In this document: in pieces, positions 2 to 12,865 of the stretch
Numbering within the stretch: the stretch's first letter is position 1
How the letters are laid out: the number at the start of each line of letters is the position of its first letter
Source: an uncultured virus (IMG/VR IMGVR_UViG_3300009618_000004)
Taxonomy: Duplodnaviria; Heunggongvirae; Uroviricota; Caudoviricetes
Length of the DNA stretch: 20,000 nt
Direction: 5' to 3' (one strand)
IMG/VR virus record: IMGVR_UViG_3300009618_000004
Position numbers and translations under genes: made by a program
Notes under the pieces: model-generated
Told to the model about the DNA's origin: nothing
Seen by the model: the letters and a program-made list of their open reading frames with translations, nothing else
Database searches by the model: none

Positions 2-559
2 GCCGCCTACAGGGAGCGCCAATCAACTTTCTGGCGGCTGTGGCTCAGAATCCGGCATGGGAAGGTTGCGCCGCGGCTGGAGTCGCTACACGGCATCCCT
101 GTGGCACAGGCCGACTACCTGCCCGACGGCGGCTTATTCCTGCAGGTGGCTGACCGAGCCCAAGTGGGACTGCCGGCGGCGCCGGGCGTGCCAACCAGTA
201 TGGGACCGCCTGCCGGTATGGAGCAGGCCGCCCAGGATGCTCGGCAGCAGCTCGCGGCTCGGGGTGAGGAGTTTTGGAAGAAGGATCGCATCCAGGCGCT
301 GAACGATGCGATGGACGGCGTGGCGGGGCCGGGCGAGATCCGGCCAACACTGAACGACCTGTCAAGCGGGGGCGGCGCGCGGCCGTCGGCGAGCGATGTG
401 TTGATGAAGGCGATGGAGGACGTGGACGACCTGAACGGCATTGTTGTAGTGCGCGTGCATCGCAACGGCAACGTAGATCTCTGCCTTAACGTAGATCAGT
501 TCGCCGCCCAAGGGGTTCTCCAGAAGGCGCAGCAGTATTTGTTTATGAAGGGGTATTGA
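2..559 (+). CDS. Hypothetical protein, 5'-truncated by the window edge (the frame of ORF 101..559 is open back to base 2)
   Basis: No stop from 2 to TGA 557-559. The stop overlaps the ATG of the next gene (TGATG). Confidence 0.7.
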   Translation, partial: AAYRERQSTFWRLWLRIRHGKVAPRLESLHGIPVAQADYLPDGGLFLQVADRAQVGLPAAPGVPTSMGPPAGMEQAAQDARQQLAARGEEFWKKDRIQALNDAMDGVAGPGEIRPTLNDLSSGGGARPSASDVLMKAMEDVDDLNGIVVVRVHRNGNVDLCLNVDQFAAQGVLQKAQQYLFMKGY

Positions 560-2937
560 TGACGCCCTACTACGAATCCAACGGAGTGACGATCTATCAC
601 GGCGATTGCCGGGAGATATTACCACTACTTGAGTTAGTCCACGCGATAATCTGCGATCCACCTTATGAACTAGGTTTTATGGGAAAAGCATGGGATAAGT
701 CTGGTATTGCCTATGATGTGAAGATGTGGCAAGAGTGCTTGCGTGTACTCAAGCCCGGTGGCCACCTGCTTTCGTTTGGCGGGAGCCGTACCTATCACCG
801 CATGGCCTGCGCGATCGAGGATGCAGGATTCGAGATCCGCGACCAAATCATGTGGCTGTACGGATGCCTGGATGAGCAAACAGAACTTGTGTCTGAGAGT
901 GGAGTCAAGCCGTACCATAAAGCAAAAATAGGTGAGCGCGTATTGTGCTACAATCCAGAGAACGGCGAGTATTCTTACCAGCCAATCATGGAGATTGTCG
1001 AGTATGACTATAGCGATACCGCCTATCGTCTTATCGGAGATTTTGGAGAGCAAGTCGTCTCCAGAAACCATCGCTGCATTGTTGAACGAGGCGGAAGCGA
1101 AGTATTCCAATTTGCCGAAACGATCAGGTCCGAGGCGCGTGTACCCGTTTTGGAAGGTTTGTCAGAATTGCGGCAAGCCCTTTCCAACCTTCAATCGGAC
1201 TCAGGCGGCTCGGAACAAATCGTGCAGCCGAGAGTGCACCAATACACTGATTGGGAAAGGGAACAGCGGTTCGACTTCGCTAAAGAAGAGGAAGGGCAAG
1301 ATAGTTCCCTGTGTGGTGTGTGGGAAAGAGAAATGGGTTCCCTTGGCGTGGTTGAAGAAAATCAAGCAAACAGTGTGCAACTACGAGTGCAATGGAGTTC
1401 TGAGAGGCACAGCGTGGAAACAACACGCATACAAGGGGAGGAAACACTGGAAACCGGAATCGGAGGCTGCGTTGAAGATTCGCATGACGGGTCCGACCAA
1501 TCCAGCATGGAAGGGGGGTCTGACTTATCGGAAGCGCAAGGGAGCGTATGCCGACCAGCCAATAAAGTATGTTCGTTGCCCATCCGAGTTCCTGAGCATG
1601 GCGCGGAAGGATGGCTATGTGATGGAACATCGTCTCCTGGTCGCTCAGGTAATTGGCAGACCTCTCCAGAGAGCCGAAGCTGTTCATCACAGGAATCACA
1701 AAGCGAAGGAGAATCAACTAACCAACCTAATGCTGTTTGCGACGAACGCGGAACACAAGGCATACGAGCATGGCGCGGCCATAAAACCTCTTTGGTGCGG
1801 GTTGTGCCATTCCAATACACCGGAAAGATGTGGTGTCTGCGTGTATCGACAGGAGCCTTCGTCGCAGTCCGTGGCGGCGCAGCTTTCCCGACCGGCAATA
1901 GCGGATTTCCGAAGTCGCTGGACGTGAGCAAGGCGATTGACAAGGCGGCAGGCGCGACGCGGCCTGTCGTGGGCGTCAATACGAATGGCAGCGGTCCCAA
2001 CCTCACCAAACTCGACAATCATGAGGCTGGCGATACTGGCATCGGCTACATGGATGGGAGCGGCAAGGTATTCGATGTGACCGCGCCTGCCACTGTGGAA
2101 GCCAGGCAGTGGCAGGGTTGGGGCACGGCCCTGAAACCCGCTCACGAGCCTATCTGTGTAGCCCGCAAGCCCGTCGAGGGCACGGTCGCGGCCAACGTGC
2201 TCAAGAATGGCACTGGGGCTTTGAACATCGACGGATGCCGTATAGATGCGACCGACGATCTTGTTGAAGATGATGGTCGCAGAGTAGATATGGCGCGTGA
2301 GTCAATTGCGGAAGGATACGATAGACCAAACGCAACAATGTTTCGTACAGGTAAACCAGCGGTTCGTGGTGGTCCATCAAACCAACTTGGCCGCTGGCCT
2401 GCCAATGTCATCCACGACGGCAGCGATGAAGTTCTATCTTGCTTTCCTGAAAGCAAGGGTCAGCAAGGGGATGTTCGTGGTGATGAACCTTCAGGCGTAA
2501 CCGACGAGATATATGGAAAATTCAATGGACGAGTTTCTTCTCCTGCAAGACTTGACTCCAGCTCAGCCGCCCGTTTCTTTTACACCGCCAAGGCTGACAA
2601 AGAAGAGCGCGAGCGCAACTGCTGCGAACTTACCCCCCCCAAAAGGGATGGTTCTCGAAAGGATGGAAACCCTGGTGGTGACAATCCACGAAACCGAGGC
2701 GTTCACGAGCGCATTAACAATCACCCTACCGTCAAGCCTCTGGATTTGATGCGCTATCTCTGCAAGTTGCTTTGTCCGCCGAGCGGGGGAATCCTTCTGG
2801 ACCCATTTATGGGAAGTGGAAGCACGCTGATCGCCGGGCGTGGATTCTATCAACGTTGCATCGGTATCGAACTCGAAGAGAGGTACTGCGAGATTGCGGC
2901 GAAGAGACTGAGCCAACAGGTACTTGGTTTTGAATAG
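559..2937 (+). CDS. Beta-class N6A/N4C DNA methyltransferase (MTase-1) containing an intein
   Basis: IYHGDC, motif IV DPPY, LRVLKPGG, GWGTALKPAHEP, GRWPAN, NNHPTVKP and motif I LLDPFMGSGST. AAGGGG RBS before ATG 559. Confidence 0.95.
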   Translation: MTPYYESNGVTIYHGDCREILPLLELVHAIICDPPYELGFMGKAWDKSGIAYDVKMWQECLRVLKPGGHLLSFGGSRTYHRMACAIEDAGFEIRDQIMWLYGCLDEQTELVSESGVKPYHKAKIGERVLCYNPENGEYSYQPIMEIVEYDYSDTAYRLIGDFGEQVVSRNHRCIVERGGSEVFQFAETIRSEARVPVLEGLSELRQALSNLQSDSGGSEQIVQPRVHQYTDWEREQRFDFAKEEEGQDSSLCGVWEREMGSLGVVEENQANSVQLRVQWSSERHSVETTRIQGEETLETGIGGCVEDSHDGSDQSSMEGGSDLSEAQGSVCRPANKVCSLPIRVPEHGAEGWLCDGTSSPGRSGNWQTSPESRSCSSQESQSEGESTNQPNAVCDERGTQGIRAWRGHKTSLVRVVPFQYTGKMWCLRVSTGAFVAVRGGAAFPTGNSGFPKSLDVSKAIDKAAGATRPVVGVNTNGSGPNLTKLDNHEAGDTGIGYMDGSGKVFDVTAPATVEARQWQGWGTALKPAHEPICVARKPVEGTVAANVLKNGTGALNIDGCRIDATDDLVEDDGRRVDMARESIAEGYDRPNATMFRTGKPAVRGGPSNQLGRWPANVIHDGSDEVLSCFPESKGQQGDVRGDEPSGVTDEIYGKFNGRVSSPARLDSSSAARFFYTAKADKEERERNCCELTPPKRDGSRKDGNPGGDNPRNRGVHERINNHPTVKPLDLMRYLCKLLCPPSGGILLDPFMGSGSTLIAGRGFYQRCIGIELEERYCEIAAKRLSQQVLGFE
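865..1899 (+). mobile_element. Intein (345 aa) in MTase-1
   Basis: Starts CLDEQTELV (block A), has SRNH (block B) and YTGKMWCLRV (block F), and ends FPTGN followed by Ser(+1). Removal restores the WLYG-SGFPKS motif of this MTase family. Confidence 0.92.
932..1927 (+). CDS. HNH homing endonuclease in the +1 frame inside the intein (true start uncertain: 932, 1004, 1112 or 1139)
   Basis: Two Cys clusters (CQNC..CSREC, CVVC..CNYEC), NPAWKGG, and HNH core GYVMEHRLLVAQVIGRPL..EAVHHRNH..ENQLTNL..NAEH. Confidence 0.88.
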   Translation: MSAYCATIQRTASILTSQSWRLSSMTIAIPPIVLSEILESKSSPETIAALLNEAEAKYSNLPKRSGPRRVYPFWKVCQNCGKPFPTFNRTQAARNKSCSRECTNTLIGKGNSGSTSLKKRKGKIVPCVVCGKEKWVPLAWLKKIKQTVCNYECNGVLRGTAWKQHAYKGRKHWKPESEAALKIRMTGPTNPAWKGGLTYRKRKGAYADQPIKYVRCPSEFLSMARKDGYVMEHRLLVAQVIGRPLQRAEAVHHRNHKAKENQLTNLMLFATNAEHKAYEHGAAIKPLWCGLCHSNTPERCGVCVYRQEPSSQSVAAQLSRPAIADFRSRWT

Positions 2938-2941
2938 TAGC

Positions 2942-3181
2942 CTACTCGTCAATAAGGTGCCAGCAATCCGAATGAACAAACCGCTTCCCGCGCGGTGCCA
3001 GATATTTGAGAACCAGATCGTTGCCCACACTTCGATCCCCTTTGAAGATTTGGGAAAGTAATTGCATTGATATTCCGATCTCGTTCGCAAACTGGACCTG
3101 GGTCATTCCACCTTGACGGTCCTTGAGCATCTGGCGTAACTCGCCGGCGGTGTAGGGGGCTGGTGTGGGCTTATTGCTCAT
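2942..3181 (-). CDS. Cro/XRE-like HTH DNA-binding protein
   Basis: MTQVQFANEIGISMQLLSQIFKGDR is a typical HTH. AGGAAG RBS; start 3181 or 3187. Confidence 0.8.
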   Translation of the reverse strand: MSNKPTPAPYTAGELRQMLKDRQGGMTQVQFANEIGISMQLLSQIFKGDRSVGNDLVLKYLAPRGKRFVHSDCWHLIDE

Positions 3182-4031
3182 CGTCATCTTCCTTCTGCGG
3201 TATGCCGTCGAACGCCGCCTGCAGAACTTCGACCTGTTTTTGGAGAGTTTCCCTGATACGCTCAGCGTGTCCCACTCCATACCTCGCCTGGTCGAGAACG
3301 GTTTTTATGTTGGCTTTCCCGTCCATCAACATCCTCACCACCTTGCCGATCTTCTCTGGTTGAGTCCATCCATACGAAATTAATAGTCCAGACTCTTTCT
3401 CATAAGCGTCAACTTTCTCTTTTAATTCTTTGTAGTATTTCTCATATTCGTCCGTTCTTGTGCGAGACACCCCCTGTTTGTATCCCTCATCTCGCGCTGC
3501 GGTTAAAGCCGCAGCATCGGCTTTTGATTGGCGATTACTCACTGCATAAATGAGAGCGGTGAGCATGGTTATGCTCATAGGGAGTGGATCCAACCTAGGA
3601 CACGGCACAACACACTTGAGCCGGTTCTTTTGCGCCACAAACATTCCCCATGATTCTGGCAGTTCGCCGGGTTTAACAATGTCTTTATGGGGAACTACTA
3701 ATCCCCAATGGTGGCAATAGCGAAGGATGGACTCCGCCTTCTCCGGCTGTTTCAATTCCTTGAGCCAGTCGTTGCGTGAGACTTTCATCTCGAATCCCCA
3801 GATTGCCTTGCCCCGGCTCCGGTAAAGACTGATCGCCATAGCGTCCGCTGTTCGCACTCCGTCAAACCCGGTAGCATCCCTCACTTCTTCGAGGGTGATA
3901 TACGCTGGTGCCGTGAAACTTGCCTGAAGGCGAAGGAATAGATCATGAGCCGCGAGCTTGGCTCCCTCTTCCAACTCTTCGTCTGCCACAACTTCCGGTC
4001 CGATCAATTCTTCGTATGCGGGATCGCTCAT
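3171..4031 (-). CDS. PD-(D/E)XK-like protein (MmcB-like phage family) with coiled-coil C-terminus
   Basis: EEV..RTADAMA..WGFEMKVSRNDWLKELKQPEK..ELPESWG. ATGA coupling at 4028-4031. Confidence 0.7.
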   Translation of the reverse strand: MSDPAYEELIGPEVVADEELEEGAKLAAHDLFLRLQASFTAPAYITLEEVRDATGFDGVRTADAMAISLYRSRGKAIWGFEMKVSRNDWLKELKQPEKAESILRYCHHWGLVVPHKDIVKPGELPESWGMFVAQKNRLKCVVPCPRLDPLPMSITMLTALIYAVSNRQSKADAAALTAARDEGYKQGVSRTRTDEYEKYYKELKEKVDAYEKESGLLISYGWTQPEKIGKVVRMLMDGKANIKTVLDQARYGVGHAERIRETLQKQVEVLQAAFDGIPQKEDDDEQ

Positions 4032-4444
4032 GCTTTCTTCCCCCACGCGCCAACCTTATCTAACCCAAACGGCAACTCCCAGGTGGACGGCAAGACCCAG
4101 AGCACGCGCAGGTGCAACTTAGTCACCCACTCATCCTGCAGCGCCGGATATACCTCGACAGCGACAACTTCCGGACCAAATATCTCGTGGAGGGCTCGCT
4201 GAATTTCTTCCCACGTCAACTGCTCGATGTCACCGTGACGAATGAAAGTGACCTGCATGACGCCGCCGATCGCAGAATCAACCGCGAACATCTGGACTTC
4301 CATCCGGCTGTTGGCGTAGATAGCCATGCAGTTGATGAGCAGAGGATAGTCCTGTTGCATCTCAGGCGTGATAGTAACTTGCTCGAACGGCGTCCACTGC
4401 CGGCCAAACGCTTTGAGCAATGCGGTCTTGCGAACCTTCGTCAT
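4028..4444 (-). CDS. Conserved phage hypothetical protein
   Basis: TWEEIQRALHEIFGPEVVAVEVYP..HLRVLWVLP motif. ATGA overlaps on both sides. Confidence 0.75.
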   Translation of the reverse strand: MTKVRKTALLKAFGRQWTPFEQVTITPEMQQDYPLLINCMAIYANSRMEVQMFAVDSAIGGVMQVTFIRHGDIEQLTWEEIQRALHEIFGPEVVAVEVYPALQDEWVTKLHLRVLWVLPSTWELPFGLDKVGAWGKKA

Positions 4445-4770
4445 CTTAACACCTCCAGAACCATGTCGATCGCCTCGGCGCTCCTGACCATTGCGGTTGT
4501 GAAGCGCAGCAACTTGAAGCCGGCCAGCGATGCCGCATTGTACTTCCGGCAATCGTTCTCGAATCCTTCTCCGCGCGAGTGCCGGCTCTTACCGTACTTC
4601 GTCGCTCCCTCTATCTCGACCGCCAGGTTACGCTCTCTGAAGTAAAAATCGAATCTCCACTTACGGCCAGGGATCAATTCCACTTCATGCTCAGGATTTA
4701 AGTTGTGAGCCTTACAGTGAAGAGCAAAGGTTTCTTCCCCCTCACTGAGTTCTTGCGGTATCTCACTCAT
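4441..4770 (-). CDS. DUF559/Vsr-like small endonuclease
   Basis: RKWRFDF..LAVEIEG..RH..GFENDCRKYNAA..GFKLLRFT. Confidence 0.85.
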   Translation of the reverse strand: MSEIPQELSEGEETFALHCKAHNLNPEHEVELIPGRKWRFDFYFRERNLAVEIEGATKYGKSRHSRGEGFENDCRKYNAASLAGFKLLRFTTAMVRSAEAIDMVLEVLR

Positions 4771-5035
4771 GCCCCGGCCCGTCCTTCCGCTGTAGTTTGC
4801 TCACGATTGGCCAGTAGAGTTTAGGCTTTCGCTTGCGCTTTTCTTCAACCACGTAGCTTTCATGGTCCCTGCAACGCGGCGAATAAGAGTCGTTCGTAAA
4901 GAATGTTCCGGCAGGTAAAACGCGTACAACAATTCCTCTGTGATAATAACCAGCCCATCCAACCTTGGCTCGTTCTATCGTTAAGCCGTTGCTGGCCCAC
5001 TCAACCTCATCTCCTACTATAAATTGTCCGCTCAT
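4763..5035 (-). CDS. Hypothetical phage protein (MSGQFIVGDEVEW...KPKLYWP)
   Basis: Strong GGAGGGGGAG RBS; coupled to both neighbours. Confidence 0.7.
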   Translation of the reverse strand: MSGQFIVGDEVEWASNGLTIERAKVGWAGYYHRGIVVRVLPAGTFFTNDSYSPRCRDHESYVVEEKRKRKPKLYWPIVSKLQRKDGPGHE

Positions 5036-5072
5036 CGTCTCCCCCTCCATGCCCCGGCCCGTCCTTCCGCTG
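4768..5072. repeat. 25-bp exact direct repeat CATGCCCCGGCCCGTCCTTCCGCTG (4768-4792 and 5048-5072)
   Basis: Read directly from the sequence; the two copies bracket gene 4763-5035. Confidence 0.95.
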
Positions 5073-8942: not shown

Positions 8943-9308
8943 TTATTTTTCAACATACACGCGGCTGGTCCAGATGGCGTGGAGGTTACCGTTCTTCTCC
9001 GGCCGTATGCTTCGCGCGAATCGATCTGTCCTCGCCAGTATCCCCATCTGGGCTCCGCGTTTCATTGCCGGGCCGATCGCGGCCAGGTTATGCGTCTCGG
9101 GCGGATTGGGCAGCGTCTCTATCTCGGCGAGCACGTCGTCGCTGGTGATCTCCGCTTTTTTGCGCGCCGCGGCCAATACGCAGCCGTCGAACACGTGGCG
9201 CCAGCGCTGGTTCGCGTTTTCGTCCGCCTGCTTCATGCCGTCATAGATCCGCGCCTGGGCTGCCGGCGGAAGACGCTGGGTGAAATCCAGAGCGTATTGC
9301 TGCATCAT
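8943..9308 (-). CDS. Hypothetical phage protein, possibly winged-helix-like
   Basis: GGAGGG RBS, ATGA coupling; ITSDDV..AIGPAMKRGAQMGIL..W.S pattern. Confidence 0.7.
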   Translation of the reverse strand: MMQQYALDFTQRLPPAAQARIYDGMKQADENANQRWRHVFDGCVLAAARKKAEITSDDVLAEIETLPNPPETHNLAAIGPAMKRGAQMGILARTDRFARSIRPEKNGNLHAIWTSRVYVEK

Positions 9309-9502
9309 TGAGCCCTCCGTGGCTCATACTCCACCGCCCGCTCACGCCAGTCTGCGCAATGCGCAATCCGAGCATGTTCCTCGTTGTCTTTCGCTACAAG
9401 TTTCTCCGCCGTCGCCTGTTTCAACTTAAAGCCGACCACCTGCAACGGCCGCCAAGTCCGCCCCGCGTCTTCGCTCCGCTCGATAATCCAGATGGAAGTC
9501 AT
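9305..9502 (-). CDS. Hypothetical protein
   Basis: GAGGTG RBS; TAATG coupling to the MTase-2 C-fragment stop. Confidence 0.65.
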   Translation of the reverse strand: MTSIWIIERSEDAGRTWRPLQVVGFKLKQATAEKLVAKDNEEHARIAHCADWRERAVEYEPRRAQ

Positions 9503-10923
9503 TAGATCACCTCAATCTCATTCAGCAGTGGCGCAGCCTCGCGGATGCGTTTCTCGGCCATTGCTGCATAGACCGGGTTCAACTCGATTCCAATGAACTC
9601 GCGGCCATACCGCAGCGCCACCACGCCGGTTGTACCACTGCCGCTGAAAGGGTCGAGCACCGTGCCCGCCGGTTCAATCGGGCAGTGACAGGACTTTTCG
9701 GCTGGCTTGATGTGCCCATATCCCAACAAGAGGTCCAGCAAATCCGATGGAAGGGGCCGTGCGCCGGAAAGGTCAGTGCGAATGTAATGGGCGAACGCCG
9801 GGCCGCAAAGTGCTGCAATCTTTTCCCGGTTAGGGTGAGTGCGCAGTTGCTCGGCATATTGCCGCTGCTCATACCGTGTGATCGGGCGCGTTCCTTCGTC
9901 GGAACGGCGAGGCCGTGACATGCCAGCGCGTCCGATTTCCAGCGTAGGGTCATCTATCGGCCCTGACCCGGTGGGAGTTTCAATGACCTCGCAACAGTTG
10001 CAACGCTTGCCGGCAGGCGGGCAGCCTGCCAGAATGCACGGCACGATCAACTCTTCAGGGAAGGTGGCGAAGTGGGCTTCCTTGTACGGCTGTGTGGCGA
10101 CGGTCCAGACATCACGCTTGTTGCGGGTCTCCCAAGGCACATCGGCAATCTTCATCAACCCCGCAGCAGTGCGATGCTCCTCGCTGTCGCTGCCCTCATA
10201 TTCAGTCACCAATTTATGCGACTTGTTGCCTGCGGTTCGAGGCTTATTGGACGACCGGCCAAGCTGATGCTCCGCCGTCTTCCCATTGTTGAACTTGTTG
10301 CCTTTGAAACTGCGTGGCTCGCCCCCATGCTGCTGATCTTCTGGCCGTCCGTCTAATTCCCATGCGCCCTTGCTGGTGTATGGACGCCGCGGATCGCAAG
10401 TTGCTGAAGGCTCTTTGATGGCATCGAAATCAAAGTAGTAACGTGGCGACTTGGTTAATAGAAACAGGTACTCGTGGCTCTTGGTGCAGCGATCGGTGAC
10501 GCTCTCCGGCATCGGGTTCGGTTTGGCCCAGATAATGTCCTGGCGCAGATACCAGCCGTCGGCGCGCAGAGCAAAGGCCAGCATCCATGGGATGCCTACT
10601 AGGTCTTTAGGTTTAATTGTTTCATGCCGTCCATCTGAGGGGCGTTTGCTCATTTGAACAGTTCCACCAGATTGAACATAACCTCTTGCTTCAGCGGTTG
10701 CTCGTGCCTTACTGCTTCCGTTTTCTCCTTTTCCTCCCCAATAGGAATCTCCGATATTAAGCCATAAAGTTCCGTCACTCCGCAGAACTCGTCGCACCTC
10801 ACGAAAGACCGCAACCATGCGACAGACGTAGCACTCTCCACACTCCGCCGGCTCAAAAAACTGCTTCAAATCGGCAGGAATTTCATGCTTGCCAACAAGT
10901 ACATCTCGGCCTAGAATCTTCAT
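9502..10923 (-). CDS. DNA methyltransferase MTase-2, C-terminal fragment (lacks motif IV)
   Basis: [62 protein letters not shown], motif [24 protein letters not shown] lies 9 nt before ATG, with an in-frame TAG just upstream. Confidence 0.92.
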
Positions 10924-10925
10924 AG

Positions 10926-11573
10926 ATGAAAACCCCTAGAATATGTGAGCAGTGTGGTAATGAATACCAGAAACGCGGTCTTCGCTTTTGCAGCAACTCC
11001 TGCCGTGTGACATTCGTCAACCTGCACAACAATGTGGCTAAACGCCCAGAGGTACGGTCCAAGATTGCGGCAGCGGCTCGCGCCAGCAGTCGGCAAGCTC
11101 AGTTGATGACCCCGGCTGCCCGCGAGAAGGCTGTCAAGGCGATTGGGGAAGCTCTGCGCAACAGGCCACTTACGCCTGAGCATAGGGCCGCTATCGGGAG
11201 AGGATCGAAACTCGCGGGATGTAGACCGCCCAGGAATCTGCACCTGGTTGGACCGACACACCCGAACTGGAAGGGCGGAACTTCCACGCTCCGAAACGCT
11301 GATTTCAAAAATCCAGCATACAAGGCTTTTCGAGCAGCAGTGCTGGAACAAGACGATTGGACCTGCCAAAAGTGCGGTAAGCGTGGCGGTAGGCTCCATG
11401 TTCACCACATCAAATCGTGGGCTGAATTCCCCGACTTGCGTTACGACCCCGCGAATGGCTCTACTCGTTGCCATGCTTGTCACCATGCGGAGCACCGGGG
11501 GCAGCCACGCCCAAAAGGCGCTGGACCACGTACACTCGCTGCTCGTCTGTTAAATCCCGCCGTAGTCGCATAA
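10926..11573 (+). CDS. HNH homing endonuclease (Zn finger + NUMOD3-like + HNH), antisense within MTase-2
   Basis: [55 protein letters not shown]. Confidence 0.92.
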
Positions 11574-11919
11574 GCCCATGCGCCCCACAACTCGGCGTCT
11601 TTTCGAGACCGATCTGCCGGTCGACACGGACGGCACCGCATTTGCCGCAAACGTCCTTAAAGTTCGCCCCGGCCCCCGCAATCAACGTGCGATTCTGCGC
11701 GTAGCTATCGGTCTCGACCGGACGACCGTCGCCGTGCGGGATCTGGCGACGCTCGCCGTTCGCGCGATGGTCACATCCGACGGAGCCGCCCTCCCACTCA
11801 GCCGTCCCGTAATCGCGCAAGCCCCAGTAGGGTGGGCTGGTCACCACGCATTGGACGGCCTCATCCGGCAGGCCGCGTAGCCGCTCCAGCGCATCGCCAA
11901 TCAGGATTATTGCTTTCAT
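11461..11919 (-). CDS. DNA methyltransferase MTase-2, N-terminal fragment (catalytic SPPY)
   Basis: ILIGDALERLRGLPDEAVQCVVTSPPYWGLRDYG...QIGLEKTP; GGAAGG RBS; TAG stop at 11461-11463. Confidence 0.92.
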   Translation of the reverse strand: MKAIILIGDALERLRGLPDEAVQCVVTSPPYWGLRDYGTAEWEGGSVGCDHRANGERRQIPHGDGRPVETDSYAQNRTLIAGAGANFKDVCGKCGAVRVDRQIGLEKTPSCGAHGLMRLRRDLTDEQRVYVVQRLLGVAAPGAPHGDKHGNE

Positions 11920-11936
11920 CACTACCTTCCAAATTC

Positions 11937-11965
11937 ACACTACGCGCTTTTGCAGAAACATTCAA
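11937..11965 (-). promoter_or_regulatory. Sigma70-type promoter TTGAAT-N17-TAGTGT driving the leftward operon
   Basis: Directly upstream of the 11919 RBS, with an AT-rich upstream tract; spacer resembles that of the 8911-8939 promoter. Confidence 0.65.
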
Positions 11966-12355
11966 GAAAATAATAACGCTAATTTGTGGATACGCAAATA
12001 TGCAGAAGCGCGGAGGGGAGCCGAGAAATTTGTATGGGAACGGTTGGTCGTGGGTCGTGGGCGTGCGGTCGAGGGCACCCCCTGGGCGCGCGTTGGGCGC
12101 GGGGCGGGTTGCACGGAGCGTCGAGCGGCGGCCGGGGCGGGCCTGGCTGGCCGCGCAAGGCGGGGGCGCGCGCTCCACAAACGGGGCCGACGGCAGAAAA
12201 AACACCTTCCCCGCTCTATTTTCGCTGTAATCTCTCTATCTACAAGGGAATCTACTACATACGGCGCTCTCCGCTCTCTCATGTGTTGAGCCTATACACA
12301 AGGGGCGTGTTGTATCAATATATATGGTGGTAGTTTGGGAACATCGGCGAGATGA

Positions 12356-12865
12356 TTACCGGCGCGGCGGGTTGCACTCCGGGCAGGAAAGCCAGTTGAC
12401 CCAATCGTGCGGGCAGCGCGCACCAAACGTATGGGGCGTGCTGAGCGACTTCACGACCTGAGCGAAGCGAGACGGTGCGCCGGCAGGGTTGGACGGCCGC
12501 ACGACCGATTGATCAGAGCGAACACATGAGACCTGGACACCAACAGGGATCGGAACCGGCGGAAGGCTAGAGGCTGGCTGCACCAGATCGGCAGGCGAGA
12601 CGGCAGGGACCGGCGAAGCCTTGAGAGTACGCGTAGCTTTGCCGCGCCGTGGAAAACTGGACTGACTAGGGCGCGCCGAGGTGGGCGAGCTTACCTCTAC
12701 CTGGCGCGGCTGCTCGACTTGAGGCGCGGGCTGGACCTGAGACCGATTCCATTTGATCGACTTGCAGCGCGCACATCGACGGACGGCGGAAGGATCGCCG
12801 ACAGGTAACCACCGATGGCCGCAACCCGGAACCTCACAGACACATATCCTGGCCCACTCAATCAT
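12356..12865 (-). CDS. Zn-ribbon protein with Pro/Ser-rich linker
   Basis: C..CGHRWLP..RRCARCKSIKWN N-terminus; CPH..CPEC C-terminus. Confidence 0.6.
   Translation of the reverse strand: MIEWARICVCEVPGCGHRWLPVGDPSAVRRCARCKSIKWNRSQVQPAPQVEQPRQVEVSSPTSARPSQSSFPRRGKATRTLKASPVPAVSPADLVQPASSLPPVPIPVGVQVSCVRSDQSVVRPSNPAGAPSRFAQVVKSLSTPHTFGARCPHDWVNWLSCPECNPPRR

Follow-up and report, generated by a model that had tools for sequence, protein, structure and literature searches.

A conserved two-part peptide module at the break of an HNH-split phage DNA methyltransferase gene, and its candidate role as a non-splicing clasp

The stretch of 20,000 nucleotides (nt) analysed here (the window) belongs to an uncultured virus of the Caudoviricetes (IMG/VR record IMGVR_UViG_3300009618_000004) and contains a DNA methyltransferase gene that is interrupted by an opposite-strand HNH homing endonuclease gene and read as two fragments. 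The locus raises the question of how the pieces of such an enzyme could be brought together when the gene between them has its own start and stop. An original prediction, made from the letters of this DNA only, held that the extra peptides at the two new termini may be self-assembly tags, with a zinc site shared across the break. As judged by comparison with related sequences, the two peptides are the halves of one module of about 45-55 residues, which also occurs in uninterrupted methyltransferases and at other positions in the enzyme. The explanation favoured here, with somewhat better than even confidence, is a split methyltransferase with a portable clasp, in which a two-part module accompanies an HNH gene and the halves re-associate non-covalently, no splicing being involved.

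A methyltransferase gene in two pieces

On the minus strand of the window, the methyltransferase frame is cut after GLEKTPSCGAHG by the opposite-strand HNH gene, continues for 37 extra residues to a stop codon (11461..11463), and restarts 538 nt further on with 27 extra residues (Table 1). The host frame is not open through the insertion. The enzyme part of the N-fragment, for which GTG 11922 and ATG 11919 are the available starts, includes the SPPYW motif IV and a CGKCGA ribbon and ends in ...QIGLEKTP, and the C-fragment contains motif I and matches PF01555. The two fragments together thus have the features of a beta-class N6/N4 DNA methyltransferase. In this class, the catalytic (D/S)PPY motif lies near the N-terminus and the S-adenosylmethionine motif FxGxG near the C-terminus. 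In relatives the gene is contiguous, and here its halves are separated by a nuclease open reading frame (ORF) with its own start and stop, the arrangement known as genes in pieces.

The predicted tail of ~37 residues encoded opposite the C-terminus of the HNH protein was recovered as an overlap of 113 nt, or ~37 codons, between the N-fragment and HNH ORFs on opposite strands (11461..11573). The 27-residue leader predicted for the C-fragment was also found, followed directly by CGECYVC, and the starts of the C-fragment and of the HNH gene diverge, 2 nt apart. The HNH ORF consists of an N-terminal Cys motif, repeats and an HNH core at residues 147-191, and it further matches PHROG HNH families and, over part of its length, phage HNH endonucleases.

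The position of the break was defined using uninterrupted relatives. One of these, P0006, reads ...GLEKTP followed directly by EEYIAKMVEVFREV, and ~100 more are likewise uninterrupted. A large sub-family has four Cys at the position of the break, as in DCGTHGQAQCGxCFVC or DCLGWATGxxCGECYVC, and the same is found in P0164 and in the locus L199. Homology to these enzymes stops at ...TPSCGAHG and starts again with CGECYVC, which leaves LMRL...HGNE (37 residues) and the 27-residue leader as the added peptides.

Four conserved Cys are thus present in a short span, with Cys1 in the N-fragment and Cys2-4 in the C-fragment, in agreement with the positions of the four potential zinc ligands that had been predicted. 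However, these residues belong to the host enzyme. A profile of the leader and the next 45 residues, searched against 1.84 billion representatives, gave 13,621 matches at E<=0.001, and 75 of the best 150 of them are uninterrupted, module-free proteins that have only the knuckle, C-x8-C-x2-C-x2-C, as identified by regular expression. Because module-free relatives have the same four Cys, they are assigned to the host's own knuckle (Cys4), with the insertion lying in the knuckle loop.

Table 1. Features of the interrupted methyltransferase gene in the window
Feature	Position	Strand	Remarks
N-fragment ORF	11922..11461	-	153 residues; SPPYW motif
Enzyme-homologous part of N-fragment	11593..11922	-	aligns with P0006 and other uninterrupted methyltransferases up to GLEKTP
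SCGAHG, first half of native Cys4 knuckle	11575..11592	-	Cys1 at 11589..11587; Cys invariant in 33/33 N-fragments; CG.HG start also in knuckle-only uninterrupted methyltransferases such as DCGTHGQAQCGxCFVC
Conserved tail core, N-half of module	11509..11574	-	predicted strand and helix; alignments A1 and A9; hhalign with site-1 tails
Variable tail extension and stop	11461..11508	-	opposite HNH catalytic motif; conserved in close relatives only
HNH homing-endonuclease ORF, free-standing	10926..11573	+	215 residues; PF01844, E 9.4e-8
AGGGG, Shine-Dalgarno-like	10933..10937	-	9 nt 5' of C-fragment ATG; opposite first HNH codons
Sigma-70-like promoter match, TTGCCA-17-TAGAAT	10889..10917	+	8 nt before HNH ATG, within leader-coding DNA
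Leader, C-half of module	10843..10923	-	27 residues; predicted short strand, helix, strand; alignments A4 and A11; hhalign with site-1 leaders
CGECYVC, Cys2-4 of native knuckle and start of methyltransferase helix	10822..10842	-	directly after leader; Cys28/31/34 invariant in 18/18
C-fragment ORF	10923..9502	-	473 residues; PF01555, E 9.4e-36
Remainder of C-fragment, motifs up to motif I	9502..10821	-	PF01555; frame intact through motif I

The promoter-like match is weak, with 1 site in 3.1 kb against 0.9 expected in shuffled sequences, and only its position is suggestive. Within 10910..10941 (+), two copies of CCTAGAAT, at 10910 and 10934, lie on either side of the divergent starts of the HNH gene and the C-fragment, and the first copy contains the -10-like TAGAAT.

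Conservation, contiguous forms and spread of the module

The tail is conserved in all 33 aligned N-fragments, including that of the window (alignment A1), which were drawn from the 120 matches listed in a search restricted to short proteins. Tail identity ranges from 42 to 97% and mostly equals or exceeds the conservation of the catalytic N-part; Cys111, Leu123 and Leu135 are invariant. The consensus for the end of the N-fragment is ...TP[SD]CGxxGx[MF]RLRxDLTxxQRxYVxxRLLG..., after which 0-20 unconserved residues follow, and the end points beyond the core differ (...GLL, ...PDA or ...HGNE before the stop). All 18 aligned C-fragments have a conserved leader (alignment A4), with Pro16, Phe23, Cys28, Cys31 and Cys34 invariant and the consensus ...L[FV]xKxEIPxDLxxFFEPAEC. 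The conservation among related split alleles on which the original prediction depended is therefore present for both peptides.

As judged by regular expression, the leader is found in 63 of the best 150 of the 13,621 profile matches. On inspection, ~53 of these are C-fragments that begin with the leader (a few with over-extended starts), 8 are continuous proteins and 3-4 are long read-through proteins. The module is absent from the other 87 of the best 150, and from all uninterrupted proteins among the homologues listed for the enzyme; where present, it is mostly in the split state. A search for longer proteins with an internal window-like tail (query region 103-153), which is weak as the query is of 51 residues, gave 19 candidates, none with E<=0.01, and the continuous forms were found by the leader profile instead. 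Among cultured phages, no record was found with the tail (best E 3), nor with the site-1 or site-3 module queries described below. No host gene other than a methyltransferase was found to have the module, in a search that was not adequate for such genes.

In the continuous forms, the two peptides are joined. The protein of locus L177 runs TPSCGGSG-LMRIRRALTKDQKERVVQTILSQDALFRKESIPNNLLDCFESAE-CGECHVC without interruption, with a module of 43 residues, and eight further representatives (P0252, P0262, P0264, P0282, P0305, P0308, P0313 and P0337) have a contiguous module. The view of the peptides as new termini arising at the split was therefore not upheld, since together they make up a single module, uninterrupted in methyltransferases lacking a homing endonuclease gene (HEG). 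Occurrence in uninterrupted methyltransferases had been named as a finding that would speak against docking peptides, and in the literal sense it does occur; however, the module in these proteins is an insertion at the same sites. Such HEG-less carriers hence have the appearance of HEG-lost or empty-site alleles, as opposed to ordinary methyltransferases.

The AlphaFold2 model of the L177 protein (mean predicted local distance difference test score, pLDDT, 76.6) includes a confidently predicted module with a strand at 106-109, a helix at 115-124, a strand at 132-133, a helix at 139-144 and a strand at 145-147, and the pLDDT of the module block is 72-94. The equivalent of the tail core is residues 106-126 and that of the leader is residues 127-149, the block pLDDT of the latter being 84-88. 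For the L205 protein, which has the module at a different site (see below), a strand at 42-44, helices at 50-60 and 68-73, and a strand at 74-76 were predicted, with a block pLDDT of 70-90. In these models, the position of the HEG would correspond to the distal loop between the two helices of the module. An alignment in which fused proteins were mixed with fragments (A6) placed tails and leaders incorrectly, and it was left out of the folding. In a Foldseek search, the whole L177 model matched CcrM (6pbd) and the M.BceJIV, RsrI and PvuII methyltransferases. For the L177 module, the ESM Atlas gave no structural match above a template modelling (TM) score of 0.5; matching by features gave small methyltransferase fragments at 0.79-0.84, which are leads only. 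Co-folding of the tail (A1 residues 100-141) and the leader (A5 residues 1-52) with zinc scored 0.20, the mark for a verdict being 0.32.

The pair is not limited to the knuckle loop (site 2). The C-fragments P0004 and P0035 start with MNFYHADDIPEDLREYMKPA joined to QIGLE, placing the leader eight residues further upstream, and the DNA pattern YFxPAE[IL]GLE retrieved ten viral loci (L202-L211) with the pair at this position, site 1, between SPPYWGLRSY and (I/L)GLE. In L202/L211, L204, L209 and L210, an N-fragment of 68-82 residues ends in ...SPPYWGLRSY joined to LPDGVKLRADLTSEQLSEVMKQLETLGI... and a stop, followed by a same-strand HNH gene of another type (182-198 residues) and by a C-fragment that starts ...YRKSEIPADLLCYFEPAE immediately before IGLE. 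The gene in L208 (oriented 2681..3834) is split at site 1 with 30 nt between the pieces and no nuclease, L205 and L207 encode HEG-less proteins with the module fused, and L206 is a read-through form with a hidden out-of-frame HNH gene; module lengths at site 1 are 41-53 residues. When site 2 was compared with site 1 using hhalign, the tails were found to be homologous with a probability of 95% (E 4e-8) and the leaders with a probability of 98.3% (E 2e-14).

A further position, site 3, was found in the viral contig L203 (oriented 2956..5067), in which the methyltransferase is in at least three pieces, with no N-fragment seen upstream. The middle piece begins with a leader and finishes in a tail (...NPNWVLREDLSEEDKRYVLIELVKRNIL before the stop), and the third piece starts with MIELSPNQIPEDLKKYFRPKRK before YILRNEIVW, the pair there lying between ...NPNW and YILRNEIVW. 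There is no nuclease gene before the third piece, only a gap of 34 nt, and this piece also has an intein at KPN/C...HN/C (slashes mark junctions). In addition, five N-fragments (P0150, P0159, P0173, P0194 and P0217) end in the tail after LNLGSSY, with the tail only. As the homologous pair occurs at a minimum of three positions in the enzyme, it is considered a portable unit. The nuclease-free splits of L208 and of site 3 in L203, with gaps of 30-34 nt, suggest that the split state outlives the nuclease.

For site 2, a tail-specific scan gave 39 loci (L161-L199), many of them duplicates, and distinct arrangements were counted. The 160 loci of the first scans with the whole N-fragment were excluded from all counts; nearly all of these are ordinary uninterrupted methyltransferases, because the pattern used was SPPYWGLRD. 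The window type, with an opposite-strand HNH gene of 208-361 residues, is represented by 16 distinct loci (the window/L165, L161, L162, L163, L166, L167, L168, L170, L172, L173, L175, L180, L181, L185, L193 and L194). Three loci have another opposite-strand ORF, which in L188 encodes NUMOD3 and HNH (176 residues) and in L184 and L192 has 152 residues and no Pfam match. Single loci represent each of a same-strand HNH gene in two frames (L198), a methyltransferase frame running straight through an opposite-strand HNH gene (L196/L197) or through a small same-strand ORF (L195), a fused HEG-less protein with the whole module (L177), the knuckle only (L199) and a decayed gene (L189), and in three loci the contig ends too early (L182, L190 and L191). 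PF01844 matched 23 of the 28 intervening ORFs submitted. HNH genes of at least three kinds, from different families and on either strand, thus lie between the same two peptides.

Both HEG-less and HEG-bearing alleles exist, and the cassette is more alike between loci than the host gene is. In P0122-P0124, the tail region is 97% identical to that of the window and the catalytic N-part only 53-58%, as expected if the tail travels with the cassette. P0182 and P0230, which are without the N-terminal ribbon, have 83% and 75% of the tail in common with the window. Of the 21 distinct leader-bearing frames whose end lies within the contig, 19 reach motif I with the frame open, the two exceptions being L203, with its further natural split, and L184, with a stop 3 nt before the contig end. 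Hence, the split genes appear to be maintained. Both junctions in the window were bridged without difference by contigs from four other peat or wetland runs.

How the pieces may be held together

The favoured explanation would work as follows. A cassette of ~730 nt (10843..11574) occupies the loop of the native Cys4 knuckle, with the HNH gene in the predicted distal loop of the module. The cassette supplies a stop codon after the first half of the module, and AGGGG and ATG before the second half, and the enzyme would be made as two chains, an N-fragment ending in a strand and helix and a C-fragment beginning with VLVGK and then a helix. The two halves would rebuild the mini-domain, strand against strand and helix against helix, tying the pieces together at the break. 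At the site in the window, the knuckle would add a shared metal cross-link, with Cys1 contributed by the N-piece and Cys2-4 by the C-piece. The module would travel with, and outlive, different HNH genes, taking the role of an intron or intein without splicing. The fused, read-through and nuclease-free split relatives indicate that the module tolerates a short loop, a 220-residue loop or a break of the chain, a tolerance that any vehicle for a nuclease gene requires. The suggestion that the element carries its own docking peptides is accordingly supported in part, by comparative evidence for a portable conserved pair, and the potential zinc ligands are the host's own.

Several points weigh against this explanation. 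That the fragments bind in trans, that zinc is bound, that the two-piece enzyme is active and that the HNH protein promotes homing are steps that we infer. The pairing of the flanking strands, with the ends of the module adjacent, is suggested solely by the order of the predicted elements, and the alignments used for AlphaFold2 cover the module in 7 of 24 rows for L177 and in 3 rows for L205. The modules at site 1 have no Cys, and the metal is therefore taken to be an extra, zinc not being essential to the principle of the module. No clean HEG-less allele of the phage in the window was found among the contigs of the four runs. The gene call for the C-fragment in the collection (P0001, 383 residues) starts at Met91 and not at the leader. 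In L186, the leader is frameshifted relative to the near-identical L185, and in L189 a truncated HNH gene is fused to a partly deleted methyltransferase; these are examples of decay or assembly error. Finally, since uninterrupted methyltransferases also have the module, it could be a domain of the host to which nucleases are drawn, as opposed to something carried by the cassette.

Two observations belong beside these points. The P0001 call lacks not only the leader but also the Cys motif and the conserved VFREVRRVL...GDSY region, and split-fragment genes of this kind are likely to be widely misannotated, as unnamed fragments or with starts placed downstream of the leader. A joint of 10596>11594 (side 25, likeness 85), considered as a possible HEG-less allele, was not used, as it most likely comes from the methyltransferase of another organism.

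The alternative that survives best, though it is considered unlikely, is that the tail and leader are the halves of an ordinary insertion domain of the host, the surface loop of which is merely favoured by HEGs, and that the cassette carries nothing. The whole module in HEG-less uninterrupted proteins (L177, the eight representatives, L205 and L207), the unrelated HNH genes in the same loop and the surrounding knuckle, which is certainly native, would all be explained in this way. However, a vertically inherited domain is not expected as a homologous pair at three or more positions in the enzyme, nor would it account for a tail with 97% identity beside a host part with 53-58%. Moreover, most relatives (87 of the best 150) are without the module, and its carriers are mostly split.

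It is very improbable that the methyltransferase gene is dead, the tail being an accidental read-through and the leader the product of a chance upstream ATG. While the leader is ignored by the gene caller (P0001) and frames opposite a GC-rich gene tend to stay open, both peptides are conserved residue by residue over dozens of diverged loci, and the C-frames are intact through motif I at the rate given above. The pattern of a conserved core followed by variable ends is also the reverse of that expected for junk read-through.

Repair by splicing, either by a split intein as in fractured genes or by an intron that removes the HNH region, is given still less weight. The order of enzyme half, HEG and enzyme half is that of fractured genes, as described in the available text of PMC2677866, a Cys begins the tail region and another follows the leader at the site in the window, and inteins are present elsewhere in the family (P0015 and P0104, PF14890). 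However, the Rfam scan of 9000..12500 at E<=1 gave 0 matches, and the Pfam scan gave none on the N-fragment, PF01555 alone on the C-fragment and no intein family on either, although a lack of matches does not amount to proof. In most of the 18 aligned relatives, as in the window, the leader ends in PAE and not His-Asn, and at site 1 the first residue of the module is Leu or Ala and the residue after the module is Ile or Leu, leaving no nucleophile. Furthermore, both Cys in the window are those of the native knuckle, and the HNH ORF fills the entire gap. The splicing domain of an intein, which has the Hint fold, is ~130 residues or more, and the tail core and leader, at ~50 residues together, are far below this size.

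Least credible of all is conservation of the tail only through an opposite-strand C-terminal extension of the HNH protein (RPxxxGPRxLxxL), for although both frames look conserved in loci with a large opposite-strand HNH gene, the tail core persists where the opposite strand has no coding sequence or just 35 nt of another ORF, namely in L184/L192 (35-nt overlap), in L198 and the site-1 loci with same-strand HNH genes, in the HEG-less splits L208 and L203 and in the continuous proteins, and the tail is therefore not a shadow of the HNH C-terminus.

Other insertions, known systems and significance

A second DNA methyltransferase is encoded in the window at 556..2937 (+). Its 793 residues match PF01555 in two stretches and have an in-frame insertion of ~430 residues after ...DQIMWLYG, which starts with CLDEQTELV, has a low-complexity middle and ends in ...AFPTGN before SGFPKS, the ends being intein-like. 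An ORF in an alternative frame (932..1927) resembles HNH_3 weakly, with an E of 0.006 that does not pass the cut-off, and the insertion is possibly an intein in which the nuclease region has been replaced by a hidden out-of-frame HNH gene. The methyltransferase family is a hotspot for insertions (P0015, P0104, L008 and L203; P0084, L085 and L105; P0007 and P0009). These include inteins at DIIW/C...HN/SKPNP (annotated as PF14890 in P0015 and P0104), an in-frame insertion after FALRA or ALRDP that contains ...MAAMIDAEG..., and in P0007 and P0009 a low-complexity in-frame insertion of ~270 residues after PMPESV. We take the ...MAAMIDAEG... insertion to be reminiscent of LAGLIDADG.

Natural splits by free-standing nuclease genes have been reported for T4-like phages, including nrdA-a / mobE / nrdA-b of Aeh1 (Friedrich et al. 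2007, cited therein), split gene 43 and the T4 topoisomerase genes 39/60, and how the pieces of these enzymes assemble is called an open question (PMC2988022). As in the window, a free-standing HNH gene in a conserved enzyme gene leads to two polypeptides, translated separately and in need of being reunited, without an intron or intein. The available text of that source describes no conserved pair of end peptides, whereas the ends in the window belong to a portable module found at several sites, with or without a nuclease. The fractured genes reported in 2009 (PMC2677866) are closer in layout, with an enzyme half and adapter half, a HEG, and an adapter half and enzyme half, and they likewise come mainly from environmental phage DNA and have an adapter that neutralises the insertion. 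According to the accessible part of the report, however, their adapter is a split intein that ligates the halves, and the ~50 residues in the window, without intein ends or motifs, could only hold the pieces together.

The ShiLan domain is a hidden, out-of-frame, same-strand HNH gene in actinophage DNA methyltransferases (Arsenault, Gosselin, Gogarten 2025, PMC11855218; Gosselin et al. 2023, PMC9957025), and its insert is predicted to form a hairpin held away from the enzyme (PMC11855218). Similar read-through forms with a hidden HNH gene are found among the relatives of the window, on the same strand in L206 and L195 and on the opposite strand in L196/L197. The two systems differ in that the methyltransferase frame remains open and the HNH gene is on the same strand in ShiLan, whereas in the window the gene is cut and the HNH gene runs on the other strand. 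The available text of these reports mentions, for ShiLan, neither a conserved pair of flanking peptides nor a split form nor a module at several sites, and ShiLan is set apart here by description and not by sequence. There was no Mycobacterium phage among the 61 phage records matched by the HNH protein of the window. At site 3 in L203, the tail begins VLREDL at the point at which the native enzyme has YLRQDI(IW). A similar remark is made in the available part of PMC11855218, namely that the first residues of the ShiLan insert resemble those after the insertion site, and the likeness may be a clue to the origin of the module.

Artificially bisected C5 methyltransferases, M.HhaI and M.SssI, have been used for targeted methylation (PMC3439449, PMC2836561, PMC6298699), and they demonstrate that a DNA methyltransferase can work as two non-covalently assembled fragments. 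Going by the accessible text of these papers, they are engineered enzymes of another class, joined by fused DNA-binding domains and without a natural clasp. No description of a conserved non-splicing peptide pair, of split forms of the methyltransferases studied here or of a multi-site module was found in the literature, supplements aside.

With confidence slightly short of even, the pair is further proposed to be a third vehicle for HEGs beside introns and inteins. It would be a self-complementing mini-domain, inserted in frame in surface loops, that takes a nuclease gene into its own distal loop on either strand, leaves the host functional in 2-3 pieces or as a read-through protein, survives loss of the nuclease, and spreads between sites and diverged hosts. 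The family provides a concrete candidate answer to the question of how HEG-split enzymes assemble, in the form of a short conserved two-part clasp, and it includes natural controls, as split, read-through, nuclease-free split, nuclease-free fused and module-free alleles all exist. If the clasp works in trans, it would explain how a coding region can accommodate a nuclease gene that has neither intron nor intein around it, it would link the hidden nucleases of the ShiLan type with truly split genes, and it would represent a small natural heterodimerising tag for splitting proteins.

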